From the NCBI GenBank assembly GCA_003344405.1, contig NOWV01000191.1:123562-143561 (forward strand): a DNA stretch of 20,000 nt. The letters are read 5' to 3'. Position numbers and translations under genes: made by a program. The first letter of the stretch is position 1; each line of letters starts with the position of its first letter. The notes beneath the pieces were generated by a model, which was not told the DNA's origin, did no database searches, and saw only the letters and a program-made list of their open reading frames with translations. Positions 1 to 19,262 of this stretch are shown one piece after another. This DNA comes from Trichoplax sp. H2 (Eukaryota).

Positions 1-74
1 AATTTGTTACGAAATGAATTATGTCAATTCAGATACCATATAGCAAAAAGTAACAATCTCTTTACATTTGGCAG

Positions 75-3000
75 GTATTTGGACAGTAATCGGATATTAA
101 CAATTGAAAATGACACATTTCCAGTCTCACTTGTAACTCTGTACGTACCTCCTCGACGTAAATTGACTTCGTAAATTTCGTCTAACATTAGATATGACTA
201 TGCCAACTATTTCTTTCGTGAATATAATAAAGGACTGTACGCAAATCGCCTTTCCGTTTAAACTATCATAAATATAATTTTTTATTTATCTTATACATAG
301 GCACTTACAGAGCAACCAATTCGACTTTCAACACAAGTTACCATTTACGAATCGCTCCAATTTGGTCACTTTGTAAGTAGCGATTGCTAGCTTTACGCCT
401 TAGGATATTTTGTACTTAAACTGCTATTATGTATTATTTTGATACTCTGTTATTGTATAGATACCTACAAAACAACCAAATTAGTTACATTCCCAATGAT
501 GCCTTTCAAGGATGTACGGCTTTAAGTGATTTGTAAGTTGATGCATGATATCATAGGGCTAATCTATACGAGATAATGGTTAATGTCAATAATTTATTAT
601 ATTCATATAAACATAAGGAATCTGTGTCACTGAAAATTAGTAGCTACAGTATCAATCGATTTAATTCATCATAATATTTAATGCTGACTAATATATTCGC
701 AGGAGAATGTCTAATAACAAGATTGGTCGTATACTTTATCCAATGTTTAGAGATACGAAACAATTGATTCGTTTGTAAGTCTATTCTTTTAACATTCATT
801 CATATTTATCGATTTTAACTTTAGCGTACATAAGTCATAAAACAAGCTATCACCGAAAGGAGTTTTTTAAGAAGATTAAAATATAAATTACTCGCCAACA
901 TTTATTGTTAGTGTCTTAAATTATGTGACATTCATCATGATCCATGTAGGCATCTACAGACAAACAGAATTGCATACATCGAAGACGGCTCATTCACCCA
1001 TATTAACCGATATCCTGGGCATAGCATGGTTGATTTGTGAGTTGTTATCATGAAATTGAGCCATTATAAATTGTTAAAATATCCAATGGTAACTTTATTT
1101 ATGCCATCGAAGAAATCGACCCACTTTTTAATTATAATGCTTATAAAATTCATAGCTTTCTAAATTCCAATGAACTAACTAAATTACCAGATGGTGGAGA
1201 CTGGCATGACTTTGGTGCTACAAACATGTAAGTTGACTTAAGTGCTGACACATAAAATTGATGTTATAAAATGCCGTCCAAACACTATTTAAAAACCGAT
1301 ATTTAATAAATTATATGTACTGTATCATCTTTCTTGCATTTAGATATTTCCAAAATAACAGAATAAATCACATTCAAAGTGATCTTTTCAAGAATGTAAA
1401 AAGCTGCAACACCATGTAAGTATTAGACTAATTGTAAATTTAATTCTTTGTAACTGAATTGATAATTCAATCATATCGCAGACAAGAACTCATTTGATAT
1501 TTCTTCCAACATTGCGTGGTTGTAATATCTTATATATTTGTCAAATTTTTATAATAGGAATTTTCGAACGAATGAGATTTACACAATTGATGGCTACGCT
1601 TTTAACGATGTTACCTGCAGCTACATGTAAGTTGAAGGCTTGCTAGATCAATCAGCCGTAGCTAGTAATTTCATATAATCTTCTTACTTGCTAAGTTTAA
1701 ATTTTTATCATTCCTTAGCTACCTCGATTCAAATATCATTCGAAATATTAGCAGCTACTCTTTCAATACGGTTTCAACAGTTGACTTGTATGTAATTAAT
1801 ACTTTTCTATTACATTAATAAGCTATTTATACTAAAACATATCTATAATTTTAATTCGAAATTCATGTTCTTTTGATTTATCAATAAAATTTTACACCTG
1901 TAACGTAGTCATATTGACGATATGAAAATGCAGCAAATTCCAACTATGGCCTTCGTCAATTTCGGTTGTAGTGGCGAATGGTAAATTGCGATAGTGCTAC
2001 TATAAGAAAATAAAACATCAAGAAATAAAGCATTTGTGAACTGAATTAGTATTAAAGTATTGGAAATTAATTGTTAATTTTTAGTTACCTCGACAATAAT
2101 GAAATCCATTATATTGCTGAAGACGCTTTTGCCCCTCTTACAGCTGGCAGATTGTAAGTTAACTTGAATATGATTACCTTTTTAATTGATATTTTGCTAA
2201 TCTTGTGTCGATATTGTTCTTAGACATTTGGAATATAACCAATTAACAACGATAACCAATAAAATCTTTAAGGACGGAAGCTCAATTAATTATTTGTGAG
2301 TATATCTGATCAAACTTATTTTTAACTAATGTAATTACTGATTTGAAATCTAAATGGCCTTCTGTATATTTCAGCTACATGCACCGTAATAAATTGTCCG
2401 TCTTTTCGCCAAAGTCACTTTCTGGTATTACCGTTGGAACTGTTGGTTTCTTGTAAGCCACTAATTTCATTGATGTACCTTTTTGTTGTCGTAACCGTAA
2501 TTAATACACGTAAATTTATCAATCCTGTTCATTCTTCTCAATTGCATTTAATTTTGTCATCTATAGCTACTTAGACAATAACCAGTTCACCTTATACCCG
2601 CATTTAGCTCTAAATGCTATTCGCATCGCACGAATGTAAGTATTTGATTTTATAACGAAGCAACTGCTTTTACGAGTATCAAGATGGTAGCATTCATTAC
2701 TGTTTGATTTGATATAGCTAATAAGTTTTAGAGCAATTTCTTAATCTTAGTGTAAGCAAAAGCCAGATAGCTTTTACATTGTGTAATTTAAGTTCAAACC
2801 TCTTAAAGTTATCGAACTTATGAAATAAGCTATTAATTGATTTTAGATACTTCAACGACAATCCCATAGTTGTATTGCATGATGGTGCAATAGCTAATCA
2901 AGTTAATCTCTTGGAGCTGTAAGTGTATTATTATTTGCATTACCAAATATTTTTATGCCAATTTAAGAAGAGTCATAGCGCTTATATATCAACAAATTTT

Positions 3001-4026
3001 CACTTAGGTATTTACATAGCAATCAAATTCGTTACTTGCCCAAAGATTTATTTAAAGGCTCAAATGCTTTGAATACCCTGTAAGTGAAATACTTTTGTAC
3101 AGAACTTATTTTAATTTCAGTTCTTAATCATATTTCGTGCATGTATGTCTTAATCTTCCAATGTGATAGCTTATTTCTCATAGCCATTTCTTGGGTCGCA
3201 CTAATTCACTAATTATGACCCGTAGGTATTTACATAGTAATGTCATATCAAGAATTGAAGAAGGAGCATTTAATGGATTGCCTTCTCTTCGCACACTGTA
3301 TGAACTATGATATTATATCGATTTTGAATAGCTTTACTTATATCAAATTGTAATTTTATACCTATTTTTTTCATTTCATATTCATTATAAATCTTTTCGA
3401 TTTTATTAGGCAACTACACAGCAACTACTTACCTTACTTGCCGTTGCTTTCCTCAGATTTGACCGCCTTACAGAGTTTGTAAGTAGTTCAAGTATATACT
3501 GTACCTATATGTAAAAATATGGTGAGTCATACGTATATTGATTGATATACGAGTATTTCGTAGCTTGTTTAATGTAGATTTTAAACAAGATAAAAAAATT
3601 TCGTTCAAGATCATGCACATCTAATAATTTATTTTTCCGACTAGGACGTTGCAAAATAATAAAATCGAAGCTGTTTATCGGAAAGCCTTTTTTTATCTCA
3701 GTGCTTTGACTTCAACGTACGATACATTAATCTTACATATAGATTATTAACTAAAGTTGATCAATTATAACACATATTACTTTTAATGTAGATGTAACTA
3801 AAATTTGCAATTAAGATTCACATATTATATCAATTTAGTGACTTGTCCAATAATCCTCTTGGTTGTGACTGCAATGTTTATTACACCATGGATTGGTTTA
3901 ACAATACGGTATTAACAAGCGGAACATGTGCGACTCCAACGCAAACTGCAGGCGTTTTATTTGGCACTACTAATACTAATGATGCTAAATACTTCAGAAA
4001 TGAGAACATTGACATCTTTACTTGCT
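75..4026 (+). other. LRR array (19 single-repeat exons) plus final LRR and LRRCT cap
   Basis: Exons of 66-87 nt (mostly 72 or 69), all phase 2-2, e.g. [24 protein letters not shown] and [24 protein letters not shown]. The cap exon reads [11 protein letters not shown]...GTCATP...FTC, the extracellular LRRCT pattern NPxxCxC...C..P...C. Confidence 0.95.
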
Positions 4027-7000
4027 GTAAGTCTTAGTTTATCAAACAGTGGGTCATATTCTTTTTAAAAAATTGCAAGTTATGTACGGTGAAGTGTTCT
4101 TGCTATCGGTAATAAAAGGACAAAATTTTTTCTTTTATTCTAGCTCCCGCCAATCTATCTATCTCTGCTCCTACTGATTATACCATTTATATTAACTGGT
4201 CAACGCCTCTATTATTCCCTGGAGCTAATCCTGCATCCTATTCGACGGCTGCCTGGCAATACCATGCTAACTGTTCAAGTGAAATTGCTCCTACGATGCT
4301 TAAAACTGTAACAACAAATTCGGTAATAACAAACATTCAAATGTTATCATCAATCATAGCTTATTCGCCTATTCCTTTGATTACATCAATCAAGAGTTAT
4401 GGGTCCTTCTTAATGAATACAAAATTTTTTCTGTATATTCTTTATTTAGGTCTCATTTACGCAAGCAGACGGTGTTCAAGCTGGAACAGACTATACCTGT
4501 TACGTTTCATTGGATACAACAGTAGTACAAAGTGCAAGAAGTCGTCCATTGTACATTACTACATTGGAATTTGTTGGTAGGTGACAATATTATTAACATG
4601 CTTTGACTACTTTTACAGCATGAAGTATCTTTACTAGATATAGAGGCTACTTTCAACTTAAAATATTTCACTAAAAGTCATAACTATCATTTTCCCTGTT
4701 TTTATATAGTCAATTATGCTAACTGTACACCGGAGAACAATTGTCCAGACATTGTTCTAGATGTGACTTATCGTGATTTTAGGTACAGTATATCTTAAGA
4801 ATGTCCTAGAATCAGTCGATATTTAACTACCGCTATTAATTGTTAAAGTACTAATTATATATGTATTAAAATAGTATGATGCATCCAGATTTTACTGGCA
4901 AGGAAGTTATAAATCATTTAGTCTTTCCAGCTTTTATTAAAAGTCCTTATGGTAGCTGGCTAGCCAAGAGTTTTCCACCATCAACATCTGATACCTTAAC
5001 TCAATGGTTTGTCACATTACCGCCAGATAATTTTGCCATAGAAACTCAAATACTGATCGAGAAATTGAATACTACACCTGCCGGGCCGGATCAAATTAAT
5101 CGAAAGTACGATAATCCATTTCGGCCCGTTGATGGTCGAGGTTTCCGGTCTGAAGGTCAACGTGATTGTAATAGCCAATTAAGAAATAGAGGGTGAGAAT
5201 AGCCTATGATATCTTTTTGCTTACATTTAGGAATAATATCAGAGGACTGTTATAATAATACAAGTTTAGGGTGTGAAATTCTGTAGTCTTAATTTACTTA
5301 ATAATTTTAATAGGTGGACAGCTACAATTCACGCTGCTATAACTTTTAATGGTACGGAAGTACTCACATTCGGTGCTGGTGATGAAATGTGGGTCTTCAT
5401 TGATGGTTATATGATTGTTAGCTTACCGGATGCTTCCAATCCTGTTACGAAGCCTTGTCGTCAAGTATCGCTTTCACCTTTACTGGCGAGTGAGGGTGGC
5501 TATCCGGAAATTAGAGGCGGAGTAATTAGTGGCAACGAATGTGTACTTAACACAACTATTTCAACCAATGTTCCAAAATTCAAACTAGTCGTAAGTTGAC
5601 TATAATTAATTTGAAATCATGTCTTTTAACGAAACTTAATTTTTGTCCATTAAATTTGTTATTTAACATATTTTAAATTCCCTTTTGTGTTTCTATTGTT
5701 TATTAACGCAAGTATTTGCTTGTACATTTCTCCTTAGGTTGGCTATACGTATCATCTCGACATATTCATTGCTCATCGCGGTGTAACGTGCTCTACGCAC
5801 TTCTTCTTCGAATCACAAGGAGCAAAATTCACAAGAACTGTTCCTCCACTAGATTACGTTGTTCAAACTCCAGAAAATTTAAATGTTGGTAGTTTAATAA
5901 CTCGCTTTAACTTAACAGGTTTGCAACTAAAAAAATCACCAGATCTTCAATTTTTTGACAATGGATGGTAATTTCATTATTTGATGTGCATCACGTTGAT
6001 CTGTATGTGTTATTATAGATGCCTATAGCAATGGCACTACGTACATGCTACAAATCGAAAGTGGAAATACTTACGGACATTTAACAATAAATAGTAACAA
6101 TCCTACGGCTCCTTTGACTCCTGCTGCACCCACAACTTCGACCTTACCTACAGTGACAATAGGAAATCAAACATTTGGTATCTGTCTTAATAGCCCACCA
6201 CCATTATATACGAATGGCGCTCCTGCAACCCTGTTCGCCGTCACCACTACTGAGGCTATGGTTGTAAGTCAGGAACCGCTAGACCATGAATTTGTTACTT
6301 TTTATGACTTTCTTATCAGCATAAATGATACCGGATATTCGCCACCCAGAATAGGACAAGCCATGATTAAGGTAAGTAATTTCAAGTTAAGTCGGTTTTT
6401 AAACTAAAAAATTTTTAGAATTTATAATATCACTAATGACTAATGAGAGTAAAAAATCAATTTCAGGTTTTGGTTCAAGATATAAATGATAACTGTCCGA
6501 TAGCTACATCTGATTTACGAACGCATGTAGCTGTGACCGCTTTGCAAGTTCCTCCTCTCTTTCAAATTAACGCGACAGATCGTGACAGTACAGATAACGG
6601 TGCAATGATATATACTACACAAGATATAACCGTGACGTAAGCGTAAAATATAGGACTAACTAGTTTTTATACAGAGAAAAATTTTGGTGACCTTGTAACG
6701 CCCTTTGTTACTATTTAATAGAGCTCCAGCAAATACTACGAAAACGATAGTATATACATTTACGGTCACGATAGTCGATAAAGGTACACCTACCCTTGGT
6801 ACTTATCTCATGTTCAATGTGACAATGTTTGAAAACTGCAACACGTCACGAATGACATTCCCATTAAATGAAAGCTCTCCTGGTATTGTCGACGTTTACT
6901 TACGTATTCCTGGCTATATTACCTTTTCTAAGTACAGTGAGTACTGCATGAGTGAAATGATGTCAAATTCTCTTTGACGGCTGTTAGCCTCTATACTAAC

Positions 7001-10000
7001 TTGTTATTCATTAATACTTAAACATTGTTCTATATACTCAATTTATCTTCATAATTTAGATGATACTGAGTGTGCTAGGTGTCCAACAAGTTATTACTGC
7101 TTCGGTGACGGACTAAAGCACAAATGTGGTTGTAATCCTAATACCACCGATTGTTCTGGTCGTAATGATACTACATATCATTCCTTTGGTGCATGGGATC
7201 ACTGTGAAACATGTCCGCATGGCTGGATTTGTCATGATGGCTATGCTTTACCATGTCCTCCAGCTACTCATGCGAAATGTAACTACACGGTAAGTAGTTT
7301 AAATTGTATCGTGCCTAGGAATGCTAACGTAACAATTACGGTAATACATGAAAATACTATTTTCTCGATCATATTTGGTAGTAATTATATTATATCATTC
7401 ATTTTAGTACTGTCCACCAGTATGTGAGGCTTGCCCACCAGGTACTGCTTGCTATCAAGGCAAGATAACTGGATGTAACCCTGGAACTTACGGAACTGGC
7501 GCTACTACTCAATGCGAACCTTGTCCAATCAATACCTATGCCTCCTCGTATAATGCTAGTTCTTGTCCATGCTGTCCGCATGGCACTCACAGCTTTGAAG
7601 GAGCATCGGTAATGTAATTATATCTTTTTGTGTCTATTGTAAATATCTTAATGACGTTAATTTTTTGGTTCATGATACAATAATAATGTCATAATAATTT
7701 TGATACTCATAAACCTTTCTGTAGGATTGTGTATTTTGCCCTGAGGGTATGTATTCGAAAGGTGTCTGTGATCATTGCCAAACGTGCTCTCCTGGTCAAT
7801 GTCCTTGTGTGGTAGATAAGCCCTGTTTTCCGGAAGTAGAATGTCGTAACATTTTATATGATAACGGCACTTCAACATTTGCATGTGGCAAATGCCCAGT
7901 TGGCTTCACTGGAGATGGAATCAATTGTACCGATATTAACGAGGTAACAATATCATTTTATGCTAATGTGCCTTCGCTTGTAATAATACTGCATATTCTG
8001 TATCTTACCTGTAATTGCCATAGATACCATACATAATACAGAATAAAACATTTTTACCTCAATTGCGATATTATTACTTTTAATAGTGTGCAGCAGGAAC
8101 ATTTTGCTATGATCAAGCCAATTGTATCAATTTCGCTCCTGGTTTTGCTTGTGCAAGCTGTCCATTAGGCATGACTGGAGATCAACCTTCAGGCATCGGT
8201 GTCGATTACGCCTTGTCTCACAAGCAGACCTGTACCGATATTGACGAATGTGCTCTCGGGGAACATGTTTGTGTGCCAAATGCTTATTGTAATAATACTA
8301 TTGTAAGTCTACCACTTGATTAAACTATTCAACTTTTTCTACTAATAATTTTACACATATTGTCTAATACTAACTACAATACATGCTATAAAATGACAAA
8401 TTAGCATGTATCATTATAATTCAATTATACATCTATACATTTGTTATTTGTAGGGAGGATATCTATGTGGTAATTGCTACGCTGGTTACTTTGGTAATGG
8501 ATATACTGGCTGCATATTTGGTGACTTTTGCACCAGTAAGAAGGACAATTGCGATGGAAATGCTACGTGTATTTTTACAGGAATGGGAACATTTGTCTGC
8601 AGGGCATGTATTAACTGATCATTACGGTTGTTAATGCCTTTGTATTAATTTCTAAGTATTAGCTATTAATTGATGGACGCGTTATATTCCATTATAGTGC
8701 AATCCTGGTTATGCTGGTAATGGTGTACATTGTGGACAGGACGATGACGCTGATGGCTTTCCAATCGCTTACGTTTACTGTCATGACCGCGGTTGCCAGG
8801 CTGACAACTGTCCGATCGTTCCAAATAGTGGCCAAGAAGATGTTGATGGAGATACTTTAGGCAATACTTGCGATTTTGACGATGATAATGATCTTATACT
8901 AGATATTACTGTAAGTTTCTTATATGTTATCAGCAAATTAAGTGTATATCTTCAATAGGTGAATTGTAAATGTTTATGCTATAATGTGTAACTTTATCTG
9001 TGGTCTTACTGTTAGGATAATTGCCCATTGGTCGCAAACACTGATCAGACAGACTCTGATGGCGATGGAGTTGGTGATGCTTGTGATAACTGTGTGTCTA
9101 CTTCTAATCCTTCGCAGTTAGACAGCGATAATGACGGTGTTGGTGACGATTGTGATAGTGACAAAGATAACGACGGAATTGCTAATGGCAGTGATAATTG
9201 CGAAGTTGTTGCTAATCCTTCACAAACAAATTCTGATGGAGATGCTTTTGGTGACGCTTGTGATAATTGTCCGTCGACTTCCAATCCAACTCAGGTAACT
9301 TATACTCAAGAAATAAACACTTTTATATCATAATGATAATTTCATTGTGTCTGAATGTATTATACAATAAGTTGTAATGATACGAATTGCATTTCGTAAT
9401 TGAACACCACTATAGTTTATAACATCGACGTAGACGTTTACATTTATTTTTACAACTTTAAAATTTTTTATACTCAGGCTGACACCAATATGAATGGTGT
9501 TGGAGATGCTTGCGATTGTGCGAGTTTAGGTTATTTGTGCGATAGAGATGGTGATGGAATTATAAACACCATTGACAATTGTATCAACAATCCTAATCCA
9601 TCACAAATTGATACAGATGGCGACGGCTTAGGTAAGCGTTATGACTTAGTTAAATAATATTTGTACTACTAAAATCCTGCGATCGAAATAGTACAGTTCA
9701 ATGTCGTTAATTAGTTATCCTTTACGCTATATTAGGAGATGAGTGCGATCCGGACGCAGACAATGACGGAATCAGTAATGCGTTAGATAACTGCCGCTTA
9801 TTAGCTAATGCTGATCAAAAAGATACCAATTCCGCATCACCGGAAGGCGATGCATGCGACCCTGATTTTGATGGTGATGGAATCAACGATGATCAAGACT
9901 CTTGCTTCTATAATAAGTTTTATATGCATACCAATTTCACAAGACACCAGGTTATATCATTAGGAGTCACTAATACACCAGCGGCAGTATTTACAATAAC

Positions 10001-12300
10001 TGATCAAGGCTCTGAAATAACTCAAACTAACGCTTCATCGCTGCCCTTTATCTTAGTTGGTAGGTTAATTTATGTATTACTAGTCCATTATACAGTAACC
10101 TGATAATAAATTTCTTTTCATTAATAGGATATGATCAGTTTACAGCCGTCAACTTTACTGGTACTCTGTATGTCAATACTCAAGAATCGCGTAATTACAT
10201 CGGTTTTGTGTTTGGATACCAAAACAATCGTCAATTTTATGTCGTTATGTGGCGCCATAAAAATATTAACTATCAAGGCGGCTCAACTCCACCTGAAGCT
10301 GGTATTAAAGGAATTCAAATTAAGGTAATTACGATACAGTAAAAGGCAGCACTTTCCTGTATGTTTTTCTTTACATTTTTTAAGGTTATGGGTACTATTA
10401 GGTATTTTTGGACACAAAAAGATTATATGAAGAAATAAGTGTCTGTCATATGCATCTCATTTTTCTCTCTTTTTTATCTAGCGAGTTAATTCTACTACTG
10501 GTCCACACAATACTCTTGCACAGGCATTGTTTGACACATACACTACTGCAAATCAAGTAAGCATAACTATAGCCTTCTGCCAGCTATAAGATCATCTATA
10601 GGGATATTCATGGTATTACTTCGCGCATTTCATATATGATTAATCGCCTTTGATTACCTGTAGGTTAAGTTATTGTGGCAAGATCCAGCCATGAGAGGTT
10701 GGGAACACGAAGTAGCATACTCCTTCCATCTGGTCCACCGACCATCTCTGGGGCTAATTCGGTAATAACATTACATACGTGTAAAACTATAATATTTTCA
10801 ACATAATTTTAAAGTGATCTTCCTAAGTTTTTAAATTATGAATGTAATTGTAGGGTCTGGATATACCATGGTGCAACTCTATTAACGGACTCAGGAAATG
10901 TTTTTGATACCTCATACTCGGGTGGCCGATTGGGAGCGTTTGTTTACAATCAACCTGGAGTTATTTGGTCGCGATTATCGTATAAATGTATAGACCGGTG
11001 AGTAAATGCTAGTTTATGACTATGTTTACTATATAAATATTCTAAAATACAACCACGTTAAAATGAAATGTAATTTCTGTTTACTAGCATGAATCAAGCG
11101 TTGTCTCTTGATGGCGCTTCCGCTGTCCGATTGCCTTCTTTTCAATCCATGTCATTGCTGAAGAGGTTGGTATCTAAAATACTTAAATTACTGCAGCATA
11201 TCTGGTAGAGTTTTTAATAAGAAGACACCTTTCATTTTGCTAGTTTCACTATGGGTGCCTGGGTTCATTTGCCTTCAGGATATACTACGGACAAGGAGCC
11301 AATCCTTTGTACTTTAAACAGTACTGCCTGTCTATACATTTCTAATAGGTAATGATCCTTGAATAATTACGTTTGTTAAAAAGTGTCGCTATCATAGTCT
11401 ACGGAGTATCTCCAATTACTGAGCTACTATTACGCTAAACTTAGGCGCCTTACTGGCCAATATGGCGATAAGACCGCTGTATCATCGACGGATCTACCGG
11501 GTGGTGTTTGGAATCACGTAACTTTTAGATATGATGCTTCCAATCAACAGATAGATATCTTTGAAAATGGAACTGTAGTAGCTACAACCACTGGTGTACC
11601 AATTTATGAATTTGTGAGTTACATTGAATTGCAAGAGTAGGCATTTAGCTCATTAATTATAATGGAACGATAGTTAACTAATTCTCTATCCTTGGCTATA
11701 GTACAACGAAACTTTCCTATATATTGGTAGGGACCAATCTAATTTTATAACCGGAACATTAGATGAAGTATGTCAAAAATATATGAATTTTACTGATATT
11801 CCCGTAACATTTTTAGGATATGACTCTTCTCGCTCTGATCGTGTTGTTAACATACATAATTATCTGTGCAATAGGTTCGTATCTGGAGTATAAAATTGAT
11901 AGGGTCACCATCCATAATTGATTATTGGAAATACCCTGGTTTAACACGAGAACTGCATAAGAAAATTATTCATGCTCATTACGACATGGATCTTACTGCA
12001 GAACATTTACTGGTCGATAAGGACATTTATGCGTTCCATGGTCAATTTGAAGGTGGTCCACAAATAGTTTATGTGAGTACTATCAATCCGTAACATTGTA
12101 CGACTGTAACATTAGTGATATCGCTTTACGTAATTTGGCTAAATTTATCCATATTATCCGATTGCACCTAGGTAATTAAAATATTTGGTTTATTTTTTTA
12201 GAGTTCATTAGAAGAAGGTCGATTCCAAGCGACATATCCGAACAACCGCCGTCGTCGCCGAAGCGTCCAAGATAGTACTGATGTTCACATAGAATTGTAA
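75..12300 (+). CDS. Mega-thrombospondin-like giant ECM glycoprotein, 5'-partial, 48 exons in window (~2,220 aa)
   Basis: Hand-spliced exons with consistent phases: 75-140, 301-372, 461-532, 703-774, 950-1036, 1156-1227, 1344-1415, 1558-1626, 1719-1787, 1909-1980, 2085-2153, 2224-2295, 2375-2452, 2567-2635, 2847-2918, 3008-3079, 3226-3297, 3410-3478, 3645-3716, 3839-4026, 4144-4322, 4450-4576, 4710-4782, 4875-5192, 5314-5590, 5738-5918, 6019-6371, 6467-6636, 6722-6936, 7060-7289, 7408-7608, 7725-7943, 8087-8302, 8454-8603, 8698-8910, 9016-9294, 9478-9631, 9736-10059, 10128-10324, 10482-10556, 10664-10761, 10854-10997, 11088-11165, 11244-11348, 11445-11613, 11702-11767, 11875-12072, 12202-12300 (TAA). 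They give one open frame. N-terminal LRRs, central cadherin repeats and EGF/type-3/L-lectin match the described mega-TSP branch of the thrombospondin superfamily. Confidence 0.88.
4144..4576 (+). other. Fibronectin type III-like domain (2 exons)
   Basis: [22 protein letters not shown]...WQYHANC...[13 protein letters not shown]...[11 protein letters not shown] shows the FN3 P-x-N-L / W / Y / T-x-Y / S pattern. Confidence 0.75.
4710..5830 (+). other. PA14-superfamily, fibro-slime/Psi-like domain (4 exons)
   Basis: Motifs in the expected order: [74 protein letters not shown]...STHFFFES. They resemble the RDF..HPDF / F.PID..GF / F.GDDDVWVFING / G.TY..D.F..ERH motifs of Dictyostelium Psi and bacterial fibro-slime proteins (recalled, not searched). 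Confidence 0.75.
5850..6830 (+). other. Two cadherin-like repeats
   Basis: Ca-binding motifs [41 protein letters not shown] and VDKGTP. Confidence 0.85.
7060..7800 (+). other. Cys-rich ephrin-receptor-like (GCC2/GCC3, TNFR-like) repeats
   Basis: [50 protein letters not shown] and [10 protein letters not shown]. Confidence 0.8.
7800..8735 (+). other. Four thrombospondin-type EGF domains
   Basis: PCFPEVEC...[21 protein letters not shown], ...[21 protein letters not shown] (similar to the TSP3/4/COMP GVG..FA..NKQVC insert) and ...[15 protein letters not shown]. Confidence 0.9.
8736..9910 (+). other. Thrombospondin type-3 Ca-binding repeats
   Basis: Repeated DNCP..PN..Q.D.D.DG.GDACD units, e.g. 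[26 protein letters not shown]. Confidence 0.96.
9910..10997 (+). other. Thrombospondin C-terminal L-lectin domain
   Basis: [18 protein letters not shown]...YIGFVFGYQ...[22 protein letters not shown]...[37 protein letters not shown]. Confidence 0.95.
11088..12072 (+). other. LamG/pentraxin-like (ConA-fold) domain following TSP-C
   Basis: ALSLDG...SFTMGAWV...WNHVTFRYD...IFENG...LYIGRD...GTLDEVRIWS...HYDMD. Confidence 0.88.
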
Positions 12301-13457
12301 TCGCATATTACTACGTCAATTTTATTCACTCTATTGGCATAACGTAGCAAGTTGTGCCCCCTTTGAAATACATTTTGCTTAGTATCATTTTAGTTGTAAA
12401 TGTATATTCTGACTAATGGTCCAATAATGCATTACGTTATTGTTCTGAGACTATTTTGCAGTAAAGTAGCAAACTATACTAGACGAATATGGTACTTTTA
12501 AGCACTATATGATAGCTCAGAAAGAAAATTTAGTCTTTCAATGTGTAACTGTTGATGTATTATTGGATTCCATATCCATTTTTTTCTTATATAAATATTT
12601 AACTACCTTCAATGAATTAATAGCCTTGTAATGTCTAGATGGTATCTGACGAAAAAGACAAATCATTTGTCTTGAAGAATTTTAAAAAGCATTTGCCAGA
12701 ACTCAAATTTACATATAGTTTCATTACCGTCATTCGATCCATGTTTACAGTAATGCACTATAAACGTGATAATTTTTTTAATTTTGTAACTTTTGATAAA
12801 AAAATACCCAGCTCAAAATATTCTGTAGCTCAGTTGTCATATTACGTGTCTATTTTTAAATGTTATTAAGAATCATATCTTTTATATCTTTATCTTTTTT
12901 TTATCTATCGGATAAGAGATTGCGTCTTTATCGATTTAATTACACCCTTATCGGTTGTTAAAGTTTTAGTTGAACTACGAATTCGGTATCCAATACTTAT
13001 TTAAGAAACCGAACTCAGTTCAGTTGCTAACACTATTGATTATAACAATTGTTTAAAATTGAATCTGTATGTAAAAATTATCAAGAGAGTAAATGTTAAA
13101 TAAATACTATACTTCTAAAATAGAACAAAAATAATATGAGATGTAAAAAATTTGAGACCCAGCCTATGTTAAAATTTGGCGGATCGAGATAACAGTTAAC
13201 CAAGATAGCGTCGTTACAAGGTAGTAAAATGACAATTTTATCTATAGTTACCAATACATTCTTGCAAATACTGTATATACTGTACTTTATATATACAATG
13301 GTTGGATACAATGGAAGGTCGTATAATATTTGTTTAAAATGTAGTCAAGTAACGGTGAAGTATACTAATACGAGCATCTTTCTTGTAATTTACAAATTTC
13401 GGTAACCCAACATCCGCTATTTTAAAGTTAGTTTTGTGTGTCTATGGAAGTCACAAA

Positions 13458-16400
13458 TTAAATTTCTTCCATCAGATCTTCAGCTCCCGGTAGAGCTGAA
13501 CTGTTTCTTTTGAGACGTCCTTGTGATGAATTTGACCTATTAAATTGAAGTGCGGTAGTTATACGAAGACATACAGTCATTGAAAAACTATTTGATTACT
13601 TTAATTTTCATGAGATATCGTACTAAACTCATACCCCGTGCTATTATTTCTAGATAATTGACTGGAATTTTTACGTAGAGAACGGGTTTTAGGTAAAGCT
13701 GGAAGATCGTCAGCATCCGACTTTATTGCTGCTCCTCGGCGCTTTCTCCTATTTATAAAGAACATCAAGTCAACAACAATATCCCACTTATTTGCAATTC
13801 TACACTAAGCTTACAAAAATCTGAATCACATTGACTGAAACCACTTTATTAATACCTCTTAGCTGTAGGTGCGACACAAATATTACTAACAGTATCTTCA
13901 AGCATTAAACTTGAACTCGGTAAGCTATTTTCATTTTCAGTGGAGGTCGAGCTAGTACCAGGTCCACTATGACTTGTACCCGGCAATAATAAATCGTCTT
14001 CTTCTTCCTCTTTCTCGACTTTACATAGTAACAGAGTAAGCAACGTTTACATATAGTGTTTTATTCCTTATGTTTATTTACTATAGCGAAATTTATACCT
14101 TTAATTTTCTCCTCCATCTTGACACTGGTAGGAAACGTGGGCATATTCCTAACTAAAAAAAGGAACAGCCCATGTACCAGTCAAGATAAAAAAACACCAC
14201 AATAGTTGTCAACAATACTGCCAAGAATTCTTTTAATGCCACAGCATTAATTGTATGCAGTAGCAAATTAATTACCTTGATTTGTAAGTGTCCTAATTTT
14301 ATTCTTCTTGCTATTGAGTACTCGAATGAACTATACAATTTACATGATACCGATATTAGTATTATTTATTTGCAAAGGGATTTTTCATTAATCAATACCA
14401 TGTAGTAGCAAATACAATATAAAGTATTCTAGCTGAAGTCAACTTTCTGATATCTTGGCTTTATCACTTACTTTGCCATACATGTCCACTTCTAAGTTCT
14501 CTTTTGTAACTACAAATTCCTCGAGATTCTAATTTTGTATACATTATATATTCAATTTAATGAGTCACTTAGCATTAAAAATATGGGTATTTCTACGTTG
14601 TCCTAACTTACCTTGAGAGATTCAGCTCTCTCGCTAGATAGACGTTCATTTGTAGAATTAAGCGATGCAATATTCATCTAAAAGTGATATTAATGGCAAC
14701 TGGAGTAAGGATACGCAATCAATATACACTTTATTTCTAAAATATCGAGTATAATTAGCTACATGGCAAATGGACCGTTACAAAAAAAGTTACAAAGTAA
14801 ATTACTTTTAAGTTCGAAATTTGGCTCAAGCTGAAATCAAATAATTCGCTTATAATTGCTTTCGGGTCAGTGACTGCGGCCATTTTTAATTTACCAAGCT
14901 GAAACTAAAGGAAGTGACAGCAAGGATATTAATCACTTTCATCGATTTGAATTTCCTTTCATCAGAATTGTTAAGACCAATAGGATTGGAAACAAATGTG
15001 AAAGTTGCATCATTTTGTCAATATACTTTATGATGTCTAATTCATCTAGTGCACATTACCCAGCTTTAGTATTAGCTTTAATATTAGAATATCATAAAGC
15101 TTACTTTCATATCTTCGCTTCTTAGGTACTTCTTCCAAGCAAACTATGCCAAGAGAAAGATTATTGTTATTAGTCAATTAATGCCTAATCTTTGAATAAA
15201 ATCTAAATGTAGCTATGCAACCGTTCGAGTAATTCAATATCAAGTTATGCATGATGACGATGCAATTTCAATTTACAACAGTTTTAGGGATGATCATTTG
15301 TAGAGTCTGTCATCACTTTTAATCATGTCTTCAATTTTAATAGCAACCTCGACAGTGTTATGGTCCGGCAGCAAGGAGACGCCGAAGTGAAAATTAGAAT
15401 TGGCGGAAGAATTTGCTGTAAATGCTTTCTTTGTCTGTTTTAAATATTCATGCAAGTCCATTTGAACACTTCTAGCCAATCGGTTAGCAACACCATCGGT
15501 AACTGTAAGAGACATCAAGAAAGAATAAGCAAGTGTAGAGCATAGCGGCGTGAAATTGATCAGCCGAATTACGTACGGTAGCGGAGAGGTAAGCAATCAT
15601 CCTAGTCAAGTATGAATAGCTAGTAGAACTATTTGCATGGAAAGTCTTCTCTAAATTAGTTAAGGTACAGTACAGTATGTATACGAGCTTATCTAATATA
15701 TTATTTCCTAATACAATATCATTTATATTGGCATGGAAAATCCTATATAAACTAGGTAAGATATACTGCATACGTATGAGCTGATATTGATTATTTTATC
15801 TCATAATACGACACTATTATTATTACTATTTTTGACCATCTAGTTGGTTTGTTCGACTAATGTCAATGCAATGGATATCATTCAGATCCTCTTCTAGCCC
15901 ATTATAGGATGTAATCAAGACAGTAGACACACGATGTAATTTGCGTCAATGAATTCTAATATAACTCATAGTCAACTACTCGTAGAACCAACTGGTTGCG
16001 CCATGACGACTCTGTTGCCGTCCAATCCGTGTGATGTTTCCAATCGATATTAATCCATGGGATTGTGTTGTAGTGCAGCATAGAATGCTGTCAAGAAAGT
16101 ATACAGCATATAATTTGCTTGAATCATTTCAAATACAACTTATAGACTTAAAAGAGGAGTACTTATTCTAGTAGTGTGCAACAAATGGCCTGTTATCCCT
16201 AACTGGCTGCACAATGACAACTCTATCTATAGCCGTCCAATCCGTATAATGATTCCAATCGATGCTAATCAATCGGATCAAGTTGTAGTGCGGCATAGGA
16301 TGCTGCCAAGAAAGTACACACCATGTCATTTGCTTGAATCATTTGAAATGCAACCGACAGAATTGTAAGAGGAGTACTCATTCTAAGCGTGTGCAACTGA

Positions 16401-16738
16401 TGAACTGCTATCACGAACTGGCTGTATACGACTCCGAAGCCGTCCAATCCGTGAGATGCTGATACTACAATCCAATTCTCCAAGCTAAAGCAAAGCCCAT
16501 ACCATTCCTATCATAATCTCTATCCATATAGCAGAAAGGCTACGTCGTATATCAGCGATTACAACTAATTGGATCGCATGACTTGAGCTAGTTAGTGCTT
16601 ACCTACAGTATGCCAAGCACTTTGGCCATCGGTTAAGAAGAGCTTACACAATTGATCGACATCGTCATTCTCCCATGAAGTCATCAAGTAATACTTCTGA
16701 CCAGCAGCTTCAATACGACAAAGATATTTCTCCTCCAT
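13458..16738 (-). CDS. XRCC4: DNA repair protein XRCC4 (NHEJ, ligase IV partner), complete, 11 exons, 338 aa
   Basis: Exons (high-low): 16738-16603, 15502-15348, 15143-15105, 14904-14806, 14677-14612, 14528-14472, 14330-14276, 14152-14099, 14018-13856, 13748-13635, 13536-13458. All introns are GT-AG with consistent phases. Translation MEEKYLCRI...SWE...LFLTDGQSAWHTV...EYLKQTKKA...WKK...FQLG...NERL...KENLEVDMYGKFIRVLNSKKNKIRTL...APTAKRRKRR...EDLMEEI* parallels human XRCC4 ([45 protein letters not shown]). Confidence 0.93.
15990..16460. repeat. Degenerate tandem repeat, ~210-bp unit, ~2.2 copies, in XRCC4 intron 1
   Basis: Anchor GCCGTCCAATCCGT at ~16017, ~16232 and ~16439. Other shared blocks are GTTGTAGTGC, CAAGAAAGTA, ATTTGCTTGAATCATTT, AAGAGGAGTACT and AACTGGCTG. 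Confidence 0.9.
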
Positions 16739-18479: not shown

Positions 18480-19262
18480 TCTCAATCACAGTTGTTCATT
18501 ACATCGAATCAATAATACTAATCGAGCGATTTCGCTCGTTCCTGTATGCCATAACAACAGTGTTATTGGCACAAGCACTGCCAGTAAGAAAGGCCAGAAC
18601 AAAAAATCAATGGCGTTCCTACGCTAGGAATGGAAAGCTCATTCCCTTTAAAAGAGGCTCCGACTTAATTAGTGATGATTGTGATTACACCCCAATAATT
18701 GACTGTAGTTGTCCATTACACCTAATCGACAATACTAAGCTAACGATATCGCTAGTTCTGACAACAGCACAGCCAGTAAGAAAGGCTAAGAACAAAAAAA
18801 TCAACGGTATTCCTGTGTTAGGAAAGGAAAGCTCATTCCCTATAAAAGGCTCCAACTTGAATGGTGATGGTTGTAAATACATCCCAATAATTGACTGTAG
18901 TTGTCCATTACACCTAATCAACCATTACTATGCTAACGATATCGCTAGTTCCCCATAGGCCATGACAACAGCATTATGGACAAGAGCCAGGCCAGTAAGA
19001 AAGACCAAAAACAAAAAAAAATCAACGGTATACCTGTGGTAGGAAAGGAAAGCTCATTCCCTATAAAAGAGGCTCCAACTTGAATGGTGATGGTTGTTAA
19101 TACATCCCAATAATTATATATAATTGACTGTAGTTGTCCATTACACTTAATCAACAATACTAAGCTAACGATATCGCTAGTTCCCCCTAGGCCATGACAA
19201 CATCATTATTGACACGAGCAAAGTCGGTAAGAAAGGCCAAAAAAACAAAAAAAATCAACGGT
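18480..19262. repeat. Tandem repeat, ~190-230-bp unit, ~3.5 copies, in the PDCD4-like intron
   Basis: Anchor CCAGTAAGAAAG at 18581, 18773 and 18992, with a variant at 19224. Shared blocks are GGAAAGCTCATTCCC, ATTGACTGTAGTTGTCCATTACAC and GCTAACGATATCGCTAGTTC. Confidence 0.93.

Follow-up and report, generated by a model that had tools for sequence, protein, structure and literature searches.

What does the last exon of a mega-thrombospondin gene add to the end of a very large protein, and might it govern when that protein leaves the cell? The question is raised by a 20,000-nucleotide (nt) stretch of the Trichoplax sp. H2 genome (contig NOWV01000191.1, positions 123,562 to 143,561; hereafter the window, with positions counted from its first letter), which carries the 3′ two thirds of a mega-thrombospondin (mega-TSP) gene in an AT-rich animal genome. 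The last exon encodes a tail that is real, conserved and apparently undescribed. On sequence grounds, the tail is a two-part module, predicted to be disordered and composed of a predicted polybasic convertase site (RRRRR/SV), a spacer and a C-terminal HIEL of the HXEL class of endoplasmic reticulum (ER) retrieval motifs. We suggest, with moderate confidence, that the two parts act in one cycle, in which HxEL drives recycling from the Golgi to the ER, a convertase cuts at the Arg run and the trimmed protein is secreted. The papers used here are cited by PMC number and from excerpts of their text. The elements of the tail are the following.

12202..12297, plus strand: coding part of the last exon, 32 codons, with the end of the ordered C-terminal extension and then the tail (translation, RNA pieces, Nematostella alignment).
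12247..12261, plus strand: polybasic run RRRRR, predicted furin-type proprotein-convertase site (translation; 4–9 Arg/Lys residues at the same position in 41 orthologs).
After 12261, plus strand: predicted cut, ahead of Ser-Val (sequence-based prediction).
12262..12285, plus strand: variable spacer SVQDSTDV, 8 residues (ortholog spacers of 2–13 residues, sequence not conserved).
12286..12297, plus strand: C-terminal HIEL, HXEL-type motif for retrieval by the KDEL receptor, as predicted from the translation and the comparison of 42 tails (PMC5818367 for HXEL function).
12298..12300, plus strand: stop codon TAA (sequence; within RNA contig pieces).
12073..12201, plus strand: last intron, 129 nt, GT..AG, phase 0 (retained in run X1, skipped in the RNA contigs, ortholog spacing agrees).

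Translation of 12202–12300 on the plus strand gives 32 codons and then TAA. The exon follows an acceptor, ttttttttag/AG at 12201/12202, with a pyrimidine tract and the AG at 12200–12201. Upstream, the open frame 11875–12072 ends with ...GGPQIVY ahead of the donor GTGAGT at 12073, and the two exons join in phase 0. Four public runs (X14, X5, X6 and X1) were placed on window positions 1–14000, X14 being recorded as RNA. The contigs of X14, X5 and X6, which come from three studies, skip GT..AG introns along the whole gene, and in each of the three a piece starts precisely at 12202 and extends to 13131 (X14) or 13534 (X5 and X6); X1 is unspliced across 11775–12770. No letter difference or indel is present in any run at 12202–12300, and the nearest differences are at 12331 and 12343. 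Since the pieces start at 12202 and extend to 13131 or 13534, the stop codon is inside the last exon of the expressed RNA. An earlier note, made from the sequence of the window alone, had claimed that this exon encodes the tail with RRRRR and HIEL, and had asked for the 12072–12202 junction and the stop codon to be confirmed in RNA. The translation and the pieces from 12202 bear the claim out, and both exon and stop are used in the RNA of three runs. The 12-residue peptide that it placed after the run is also present, as 12 residues follow RRRRR, the cleavage itself being predicted.

The donor side of the junction rests on homology and length fit. With the Nematostella mega-TSP as the query, tblastn crosses the 12072/12202 junction at equal residue spacing and aligns the protein to its last residue. 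From 10058 to 12202 the RNA records contain 1131 nt, a length matched by GT-AG chains that use the donor at 12072; the check is weak, as 72 GT-AG chains fit it, some of them using a donor at 12066. Exon-chain modelling of 10059–12201 under strict filters gave 0 chains. One may ask whether the last exon is misread or its motifs are accidental. Such a reading gains from the facts that the 12072>12202 joint is not among the 15 of 52 splice joints listed and that the exon chain for 10059–12201 is not unique. It meets three RNA runs that begin a piece at 12202, a Nematostella protein aligned to its last residue and 41 independent database proteins that share the tail. Chance or annotation artefact is therefore refuted for practical purposes, and we regard it as hardly credible.

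The ortholog comparison gives the tail its second support. The TSP_C exon was searched against 1.84 billion representatives (410 matches, 150 listed, mostly short exon fragments without tails), and a 5.8-billion-protein collection was queried with the C-terminal region of an Acanthaster protein (P0013) and with the type 3 repeats and TSP_C of an Acropora protein (P0175), with 120 matches listed for each. Among the matches listed, 56 long TSP-type proteins had their ends read. In 41 of the 56, from cnidarians to cephalochordates, an Arg/Lys run is followed by a short variable stretch and by [H/K/R]xEL at the extreme C-terminus; the joint conservation of RxxR and [HKR]xEL, for which the earlier note had proposed to look, is thus found. 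Together with the window this makes 42 tails, which end with HSEL (17), HEEL (8), HTEL (4), HGEL (3), HAEL (2), HREL (2) and, once each, HIEL, HQEL, HMEL, HNEL, KSEL and REEL. The E-L pair is invariant in 42/42, His is at position −4 in 40/42, and ten different residues occur at −3. The spacer, 2–13 residues long, has no conserved sequence.

The tail is present in hexacorals (Acropora, Montipora, Porites, Stylophora, Oculina, Nematostella), an octocoral (Dendronephthya), all five classes of echinoderms (Acanthaster, Patiria, Asterias, Antedon, Anneissia, Amphiura, Holothuria, Diadema, Lytechinus), hemichordates (Glandiceps, Ptychodera) and amphioxus (Branchiostoma), 19 named genera in total, plus seven unnamed records. 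It is kept in all paralogs within Acropora, Patiria and Branchiostoma. Among the 363 proteins compared, 42 have [HKR]xEL ends, and all of them are mega-TSP-type (41 from the database and the window). No such end is present in some 250 bacterial giants with LamG domains or type 3 repeats that were compared, and no such tail is present on five canonical-size TSP-type representatives, one of which (P0061) is probably a fragment. P0061, listed as canonical-size with 1173 residues, groups with echinoid mega-TSPs in a quick tree and is therefore probably a mega-TSP fragment rather than a canonical thrombospondin. Another protein, P0003, the best match of the representative search (749 residues, Logan assembly), shows by eye an unusual architecture, with three tandem TSP_C-like domains, each containing DDDYIGF, and no type 3 repeats seen.

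The basic run is constrained together with what follows it. R-X-[K/R]-R is the consensus of furin and related proprotein convertases; RRRRR at 12247–12261 agrees with it, and runs of 4–9 Arg/Lys residues are present in all 42 tails. The first residue after the run is Ser in 29 tails, Asp in 8, Asn in 3, His in 1 and Gly in 1, and the second is Val, Leu, Ile or Ala in 39/42 (counted by eye). Convertases have preferences for the residues after the cut site, and the succession of S/D/N/G/H and V/L/I/A looks like a protease subsite pattern in these sequences, not like a plain basic patch. Arginine-based (RXR) ER retention was considered for the run and set aside, as it acts on cytosolic tails and not in the lumen. 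Directly before the run there is also a block, [S/T]xxDxxR[F/Y]xx[T/S][Y/F]P, which is conserved in nearly all orthologs, is looser in the tail-less mollusc and annelid ones and corresponds to 12202–12246 in the window.

Fifteen of the 56 proteins are without the tail. Three of them, from Apostichopus (P0177) and Saccoglossus (P0009 and P0271), are models truncated before the tail and are uninformative. The other 12 are lophotrochozoan; ten are mollusc models, representing nine genera, and two are paralogs in Owenia, an annelid. Eleven of these (9 mollusc, 2 Owenia) keep the block before the run and stop 0–2 residues from the run start, with ends such as ...AYPTN, ...EYPDN, ...TYPNNRR, ...TYPNNKR, ...TYTNNRR and ...NFPNNF; in the twelfth, a Pinctada model named ‘partial’, the divergence begins earlier than the position of the run. 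As eleven models end at the run position, the protein body works without the tail and ends at the predicted cut. The tail behaves, as far as sequence comparison can tell, as a separable module that was lost in one animal branch. A terminal micro-exon missed in all eleven models, which derive from several different pipelines, is unlikely. Read-through into a missed intron was rejected as the cause of the eleven ends, as none continues with the Val/Ser-type residues of an intron that starts with GT.

These ends also bear on the proposal that the Arg/Lys run is an uncleaved basic patch, which binds heparan sulfate or another acidic partner while the HxEL end is retained. Runs of 8–9 basic residues in Amphiura, Asterias and Diadema would suit such a patch. 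It fits poorly with lophotrochozoan orthologs that have 0–2 basic residues and then stop, and with the constraint on the two post-run residues in 39/42 tails; moreover, cleavage is to be expected of an RRRR exposed in the secretory pathway (PMC8904541). We therefore consider the uncleaved patch very improbable.

The structural setting of the tail was predicted with AlphaFold2 for P0017, a 470-residue ortholog fragment with TSP_C, the second jellyroll and the tail, using an alignment of 32 orthologs. The model has a mean pLDDT (predicted local distance difference test) of 85.2. TSP_C occupies residues 35–234 and Laminin_G_3 residues 243–389, followed by an ordered extension, in which the conserved block before the run is a helix (443–451). 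Residues 454–470, which comprise the run, the spacer and HEEL, have pLDDT below 50 right after this last ordered helix. The fold matches thrombospondin C-terminal structures (1yo8, 2rhp, 3fby, 1ux6) and pentraxin/LamG jellyrolls. The model thus predicts for this ortholog a tail that is free and accessible, which would suit both a protease site and a receptor ligand.

One could propose that only the first of these two roles is real, so that the tail is a C-terminal propeptide and its -EL end serves, for example, in masking the lectin-like domain or in binding a partner until it is clipped. The subsite-like pattern after the run and the truncation point of the lophotrochozoan proteins are as such a propeptide would have them. 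However, the invariant part is a receptor-type pattern (H/K/R at −4, a free −3, then E-L) at the extreme C-terminus, and this pattern is kept at a variable distance of 2–13 residues from the run in a disordered segment, whereas a docking or masking peptide is expected to conserve more than four terminal residues. A propeptide without retrieval is thus improbable in our view.

We return to the combined cycle of retrieval, cleavage and secretion. Every mega-TSP has a signal peptide according to PMC6526912, and therefore the tail is taken to be luminal. The full-length protein would have about 2,500–2,900 residues and be rich in cysteine and calcium sites. HIEL would return it from the cis-Golgi to the ER, thus prolonging its time in the folding compartment. 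Binding to the KDEL receptor depends on pH, the signal being captured in the acidic cis-Golgi and let go in the ER, and furin cleaves an exposed R-X-X-R in proteins bound for the cell surface (PMC8904541). Any mega-TSP molecules that reached the late Golgi would lose the tail to a furin-type convertase, with the cut placed behind the Arg run. Carboxypeptidases might then trim the remaining basic residues, which would leave a mature end near ...TYPNN. The trimmed protein could no longer be retrieved and would be secreted, and the 12-residue peptide with HIEL would be discarded. The earlier note had read the tail as a removable tag of this kind. Its sequence-level predictions stood, and the predicted disorder and the lophotrochozoan stops at the predicted cut favour it; the mechanism, from receptor binding and cleavage to their order and to secretion, is what we infer.

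Several points weigh against this scheme. Cleavage, retrieval and extracellular location are all predictions, and the 5′ end of the gene and the N-terminus of the protein are outside the window. Efficient retrieval from the cis-Golgi keeps a protein away from the convertases of the late Golgi, and therefore the tag would have to be leaky. Some of the basic runs, with up to 9 residues, are longer than a convertase site requires, and they could have a different purpose. The loss in molluscs and in the annelid Owenia shows that the tail is dispensable in some lineages; moreover, the lophotrochozoan ends are those of gene models, the DNA of which was not inspected. Ctenophores, sponges, named placozoans and Hydra are outside the survey of ends, so that the tail is not shown to be ancestral to all animals.

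The position of retrieval relative to cleavage may also be weighed differently. HxEL might keep the mega-TSP mainly in the ER and early secretory pathway as its main workplace, for instance in calcium-dependent chaperone-like roles or ATF6-type signalling, as reported for vertebrate thrombospondins, with cleavage as a minor route of release or inactivation. The conservation of an HxEL-type end in 42/42 tails is in line with residence, and vertebrate Thbs proteins are reported to be mainly in the ER and post-ER vesicles and to bind ATF6alpha there (PMC5063588). In ATP6AP2, retrieval to the ER restrains cleavage in the Golgi, and that cleavage may terminate the ER function (PMC6249795). The excerpts of PMC6526912 contain no protein-level localisation of any mega-TSP. 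On the other side, the eleven mollusc and annelid orthologs without HxEL retain the whole protein body; the set of leucine-rich repeat (LRR), cadherin, EGF and lectin domains is typical of extracellular proteins; and a cleavage-type site is conserved beside the tag. We regard an ER resident as the leading alternative, unlikely albeit plausible, and keep the timed release of the protein as the preferred reading.

A broader proposal is that mega-TSPs were ancestrally ER-cycling proteins with export gated by a convertase, that HxEL traces the intracellular role in the ER and vesicles reported for vertebrate thrombospondins, with ATF6alpha binding and the trafficking of adhesion complexes, to the origin of the superfamily, and that matrix deposition is a regulated second life. 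Lophotrochozoans would then have lost the gate through a stop codon at the cut site. This is distinctly unlikely in our estimate. We note that the label ‘extracellular matrix protein’ is itself an assumption for mega-TSPs, as PMC6526912, in its excerpts, gives only transcript data and small interfering RNA experiments and states that the protein ‘might form part of’ the mesoglea.

The tail joins two well-known signals in a combination that is apparently not described in the open-access literature. In open-access papers and preprints, ‘mega-TSP’ and ‘mega-thrombospondin’ were found only in PMC6526912, the excerpts of which mention neither KDEL nor furin, and no text was found there that combines KDEL, furin, ER retention and C-terminal propeptide. 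A looser search of the open-access literature gave no natural soluble animal protein of this design among the matches listed. These searches agree with the supposition of the earlier note that the tail had gone undescribed for mega-TSPs. PMC6526912 (Shoemark et al. 2019) calls the end of mega-TSPs ‘a terminal, nonconserved sequence’, whereas the ends compared here form, in cnidarians and deuterostomes, a conserved module with two motifs; the comparison of 42 tails corrects the published description.

Four known systems resemble the tail in part. The same tetrapeptide class ends the microsomal carboxylesterases, and HIEL of the window is identical to that of human CES1, as the earlier note had stated. 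According to PMC5818367, the HXEL class is functional, human CES1 ending with HIEL and mouse Ces1d with HVEL, and isoforms without the motif are secreted; this agrees with the functional role that the note gave to HIEL. The carboxylesterases are residents of the ER lumen, for which the excerpts of PMC5818367 mention no convertase site before the tag (a comparison by description, not by sequence). Their secreted and resident forms are separate genes, in contrast to the single processed protein proposed for mega-TSP.

In plants, the KDEL-tailed cysteine endopeptidases SH-EP and AtCEP have a natural C-terminal KDEL that is removed post-translationally, and one proposal is that this tail keeps the proform in the ER, its removal then permitting onward movement (PMC2174809). 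Unlike mega-TSPs, these are vacuolar proteases; they lose the tail within the ER or shortly after it, and not at a polybasic convertase site, and their transport bypasses the Golgi. Removable KDEL tails on cysteine endopeptidases are stated in the excerpts of PMC2174809 to be known only in higher plants. In animals, ER retrieval and cleavage by Golgi proteases compete in ATP6AP2, the (pro)renin receptor, where removal of the motif leads to more cleavage (PMC6249795). However, ATP6AP2 is a membrane protein with a cytosolic KKXX read by COPI, and its tag stays on the membrane fragment after cleavage, whereas the mega-TSP tail is predicted to be soluble, luminal and of the KDEL-receptor type. Finally, the engineered lumER switch shares the arrangement of cargo, cleavable linker and C-terminal KDEL-type tag, and cutting of the linker releases secretion (PMC8904541). 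That system is synthetic and chemically induced, with viral proteases placed in the ER, while the mega-TSP tail would use the convertases of the cell.

Few matrix-type proteins of animals are as old as the mega-TSPs, one of which is needed for head regeneration in Hydra (PMC6526912). If an ER return signal and a convertase site work together at its end, a very large protein would have a secretion brake that is natural and encoded in its gene. The plant KDEL-tailed proteases and the lumER switch come closest to it, and among natural systems ATP6AP2 does as well. The tail also touches the question whether proteins of the thrombospondin family have functions within the secretory pathway in addition to those in the matrix (PMC5063588). 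Cnidarians and deuterostomes, which bear the tail, and molluscs and annelids, which lack it, offer a natural comparison.

The remainder of the gene supports its assignment. The coding and transcribed parts upstream and downstream of the tail are the following.

1..8618, plus strand: upstream exons with putative LRRs (about 1–3100), a PA14-like/cadherin-like middle, an ephrin-receptor-like Cys-rich region and EGF domains (spliced RNA joints, Pfam, and colinear tblastn to residues 1014–2070 of the Nematostella protein P0274).
8698..10058, plus strand: thrombospondin type 3 repeat exons (Pfam TSP_3; RNA pieces 9016–9288, 9472–9627 and 9732–10058; joint 9288>9472).
10064..11001, plus strand, open reading frame (ORF) limits: exons of the TSP C-terminal (L-lectin-like) domain (Pfam TSP_C, E 3.4e-26 and 2.9e-18).
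11398..11640, plus strand, ORF limits and not exact splice sites: exon within the second jellyroll domain, Laminin_G_3 (Pfam PF13385, E 1.6e-06).
11875..12072, plus strand, start approximate: penultimate coding exon, with the end of the second ConA/LamG-like domain and the ordered extension (ORF; tblastn to P0274 and P0017).
12301..13131, plus strand: 3′ untranslated region (UTR) to a likely poly(A) site (X14 piece end at 13131, AATAAA at 13099; a weak hint).

Pfam finds EGF_CA (1e-07), TSP_3 (4.5e-19) and both TSP_C matches in plus-strand ORFs at 8087–11001, and an ephrin-receptor-like Cys-rich region in plus-strand ORFs. The second LamG-like domain after TSP_C is present also in the orthologs P0017 and P0274. 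Residues 1014–2805 of P0274, which is the UniRef ‘Mega-thrombospondin’ of Nematostella, are colinear with 3849–12297 of the window by tblastn. A cadherin match is under the 28.8-bit cut-off of Pfam (E 0.0058, 17.4 bits), and the region that contains it is colinear with the stretch of P0274 that bears the cadherin domain. The 69–72 nt exons at 1–3100 translate to LRR-like sequence, although they are too short for Pfam and have no tblastn match at 1e-3. About 1,000 residues of N-terminal LRRs are a feature of the family, and the domain order described in PMC6526912 (LRRs, then a cadherin-like middle, EGF domains, type 3 repeats, TSP_C and, last, a second ConA/LamG-like domain) is that of the window, where the LRR and cadherin parts are putative. 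A search with the LamG exon among proteins of up to 2000 residues gave no match.

Bilaterian orthologs carry a discoidin domain between the cadherin-like and Cys-rich regions. Pfam did not find it in the ORFs scanned, and the ORF translations and RNA pieces read leave little room for it in that stretch. As the discoidin domain is a bilaterian addition to mega-TSPs according to PMC6526912, the architecture is of the non-bilaterian type. In the quick tree the window falls in the mega-TSP group, where it joins neither the starred cnidarian clade nor the groups of deuterostomes and molluscs; its row is a joined exon model with 5 stops and a branch of 1.87, so that the position is unsure and no taxonomic conclusion is drawn from it.

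Further observations concern the structure of the locus. In the LRR part, one repeat corresponds to one exon of 69–72 nt, and the introns of 70–211 nt are all skipped in the RNA contigs. Loose ends of the X14 and X6 contigs are present at 6435 and 7911–7942; near these positions other contigs share an EGF-type exon and then diverge into unlike sequence, and they may represent a related gene or an alternative form. At the 3′ end, the X14 piece ends at 13131, 27 nt past the AATAAA at 13099, and the X5 and X6 contigs continue to 13534 and further into more sequence. Minus-strand ORFs are found at 13601–13804 and 13849–14046, the latter with an acidic EEEEDD stretch; these ORFs (13601–14046) probably belong to a convergent neighbour gene, the transcript of which overlaps the 3′ UTR. 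Downstream of the gene there are tandem repeats, with a 215-nt unit (1.9 copies) at 16017–16424 and 192/232-nt units (about 2 copies) at 18574–19262.

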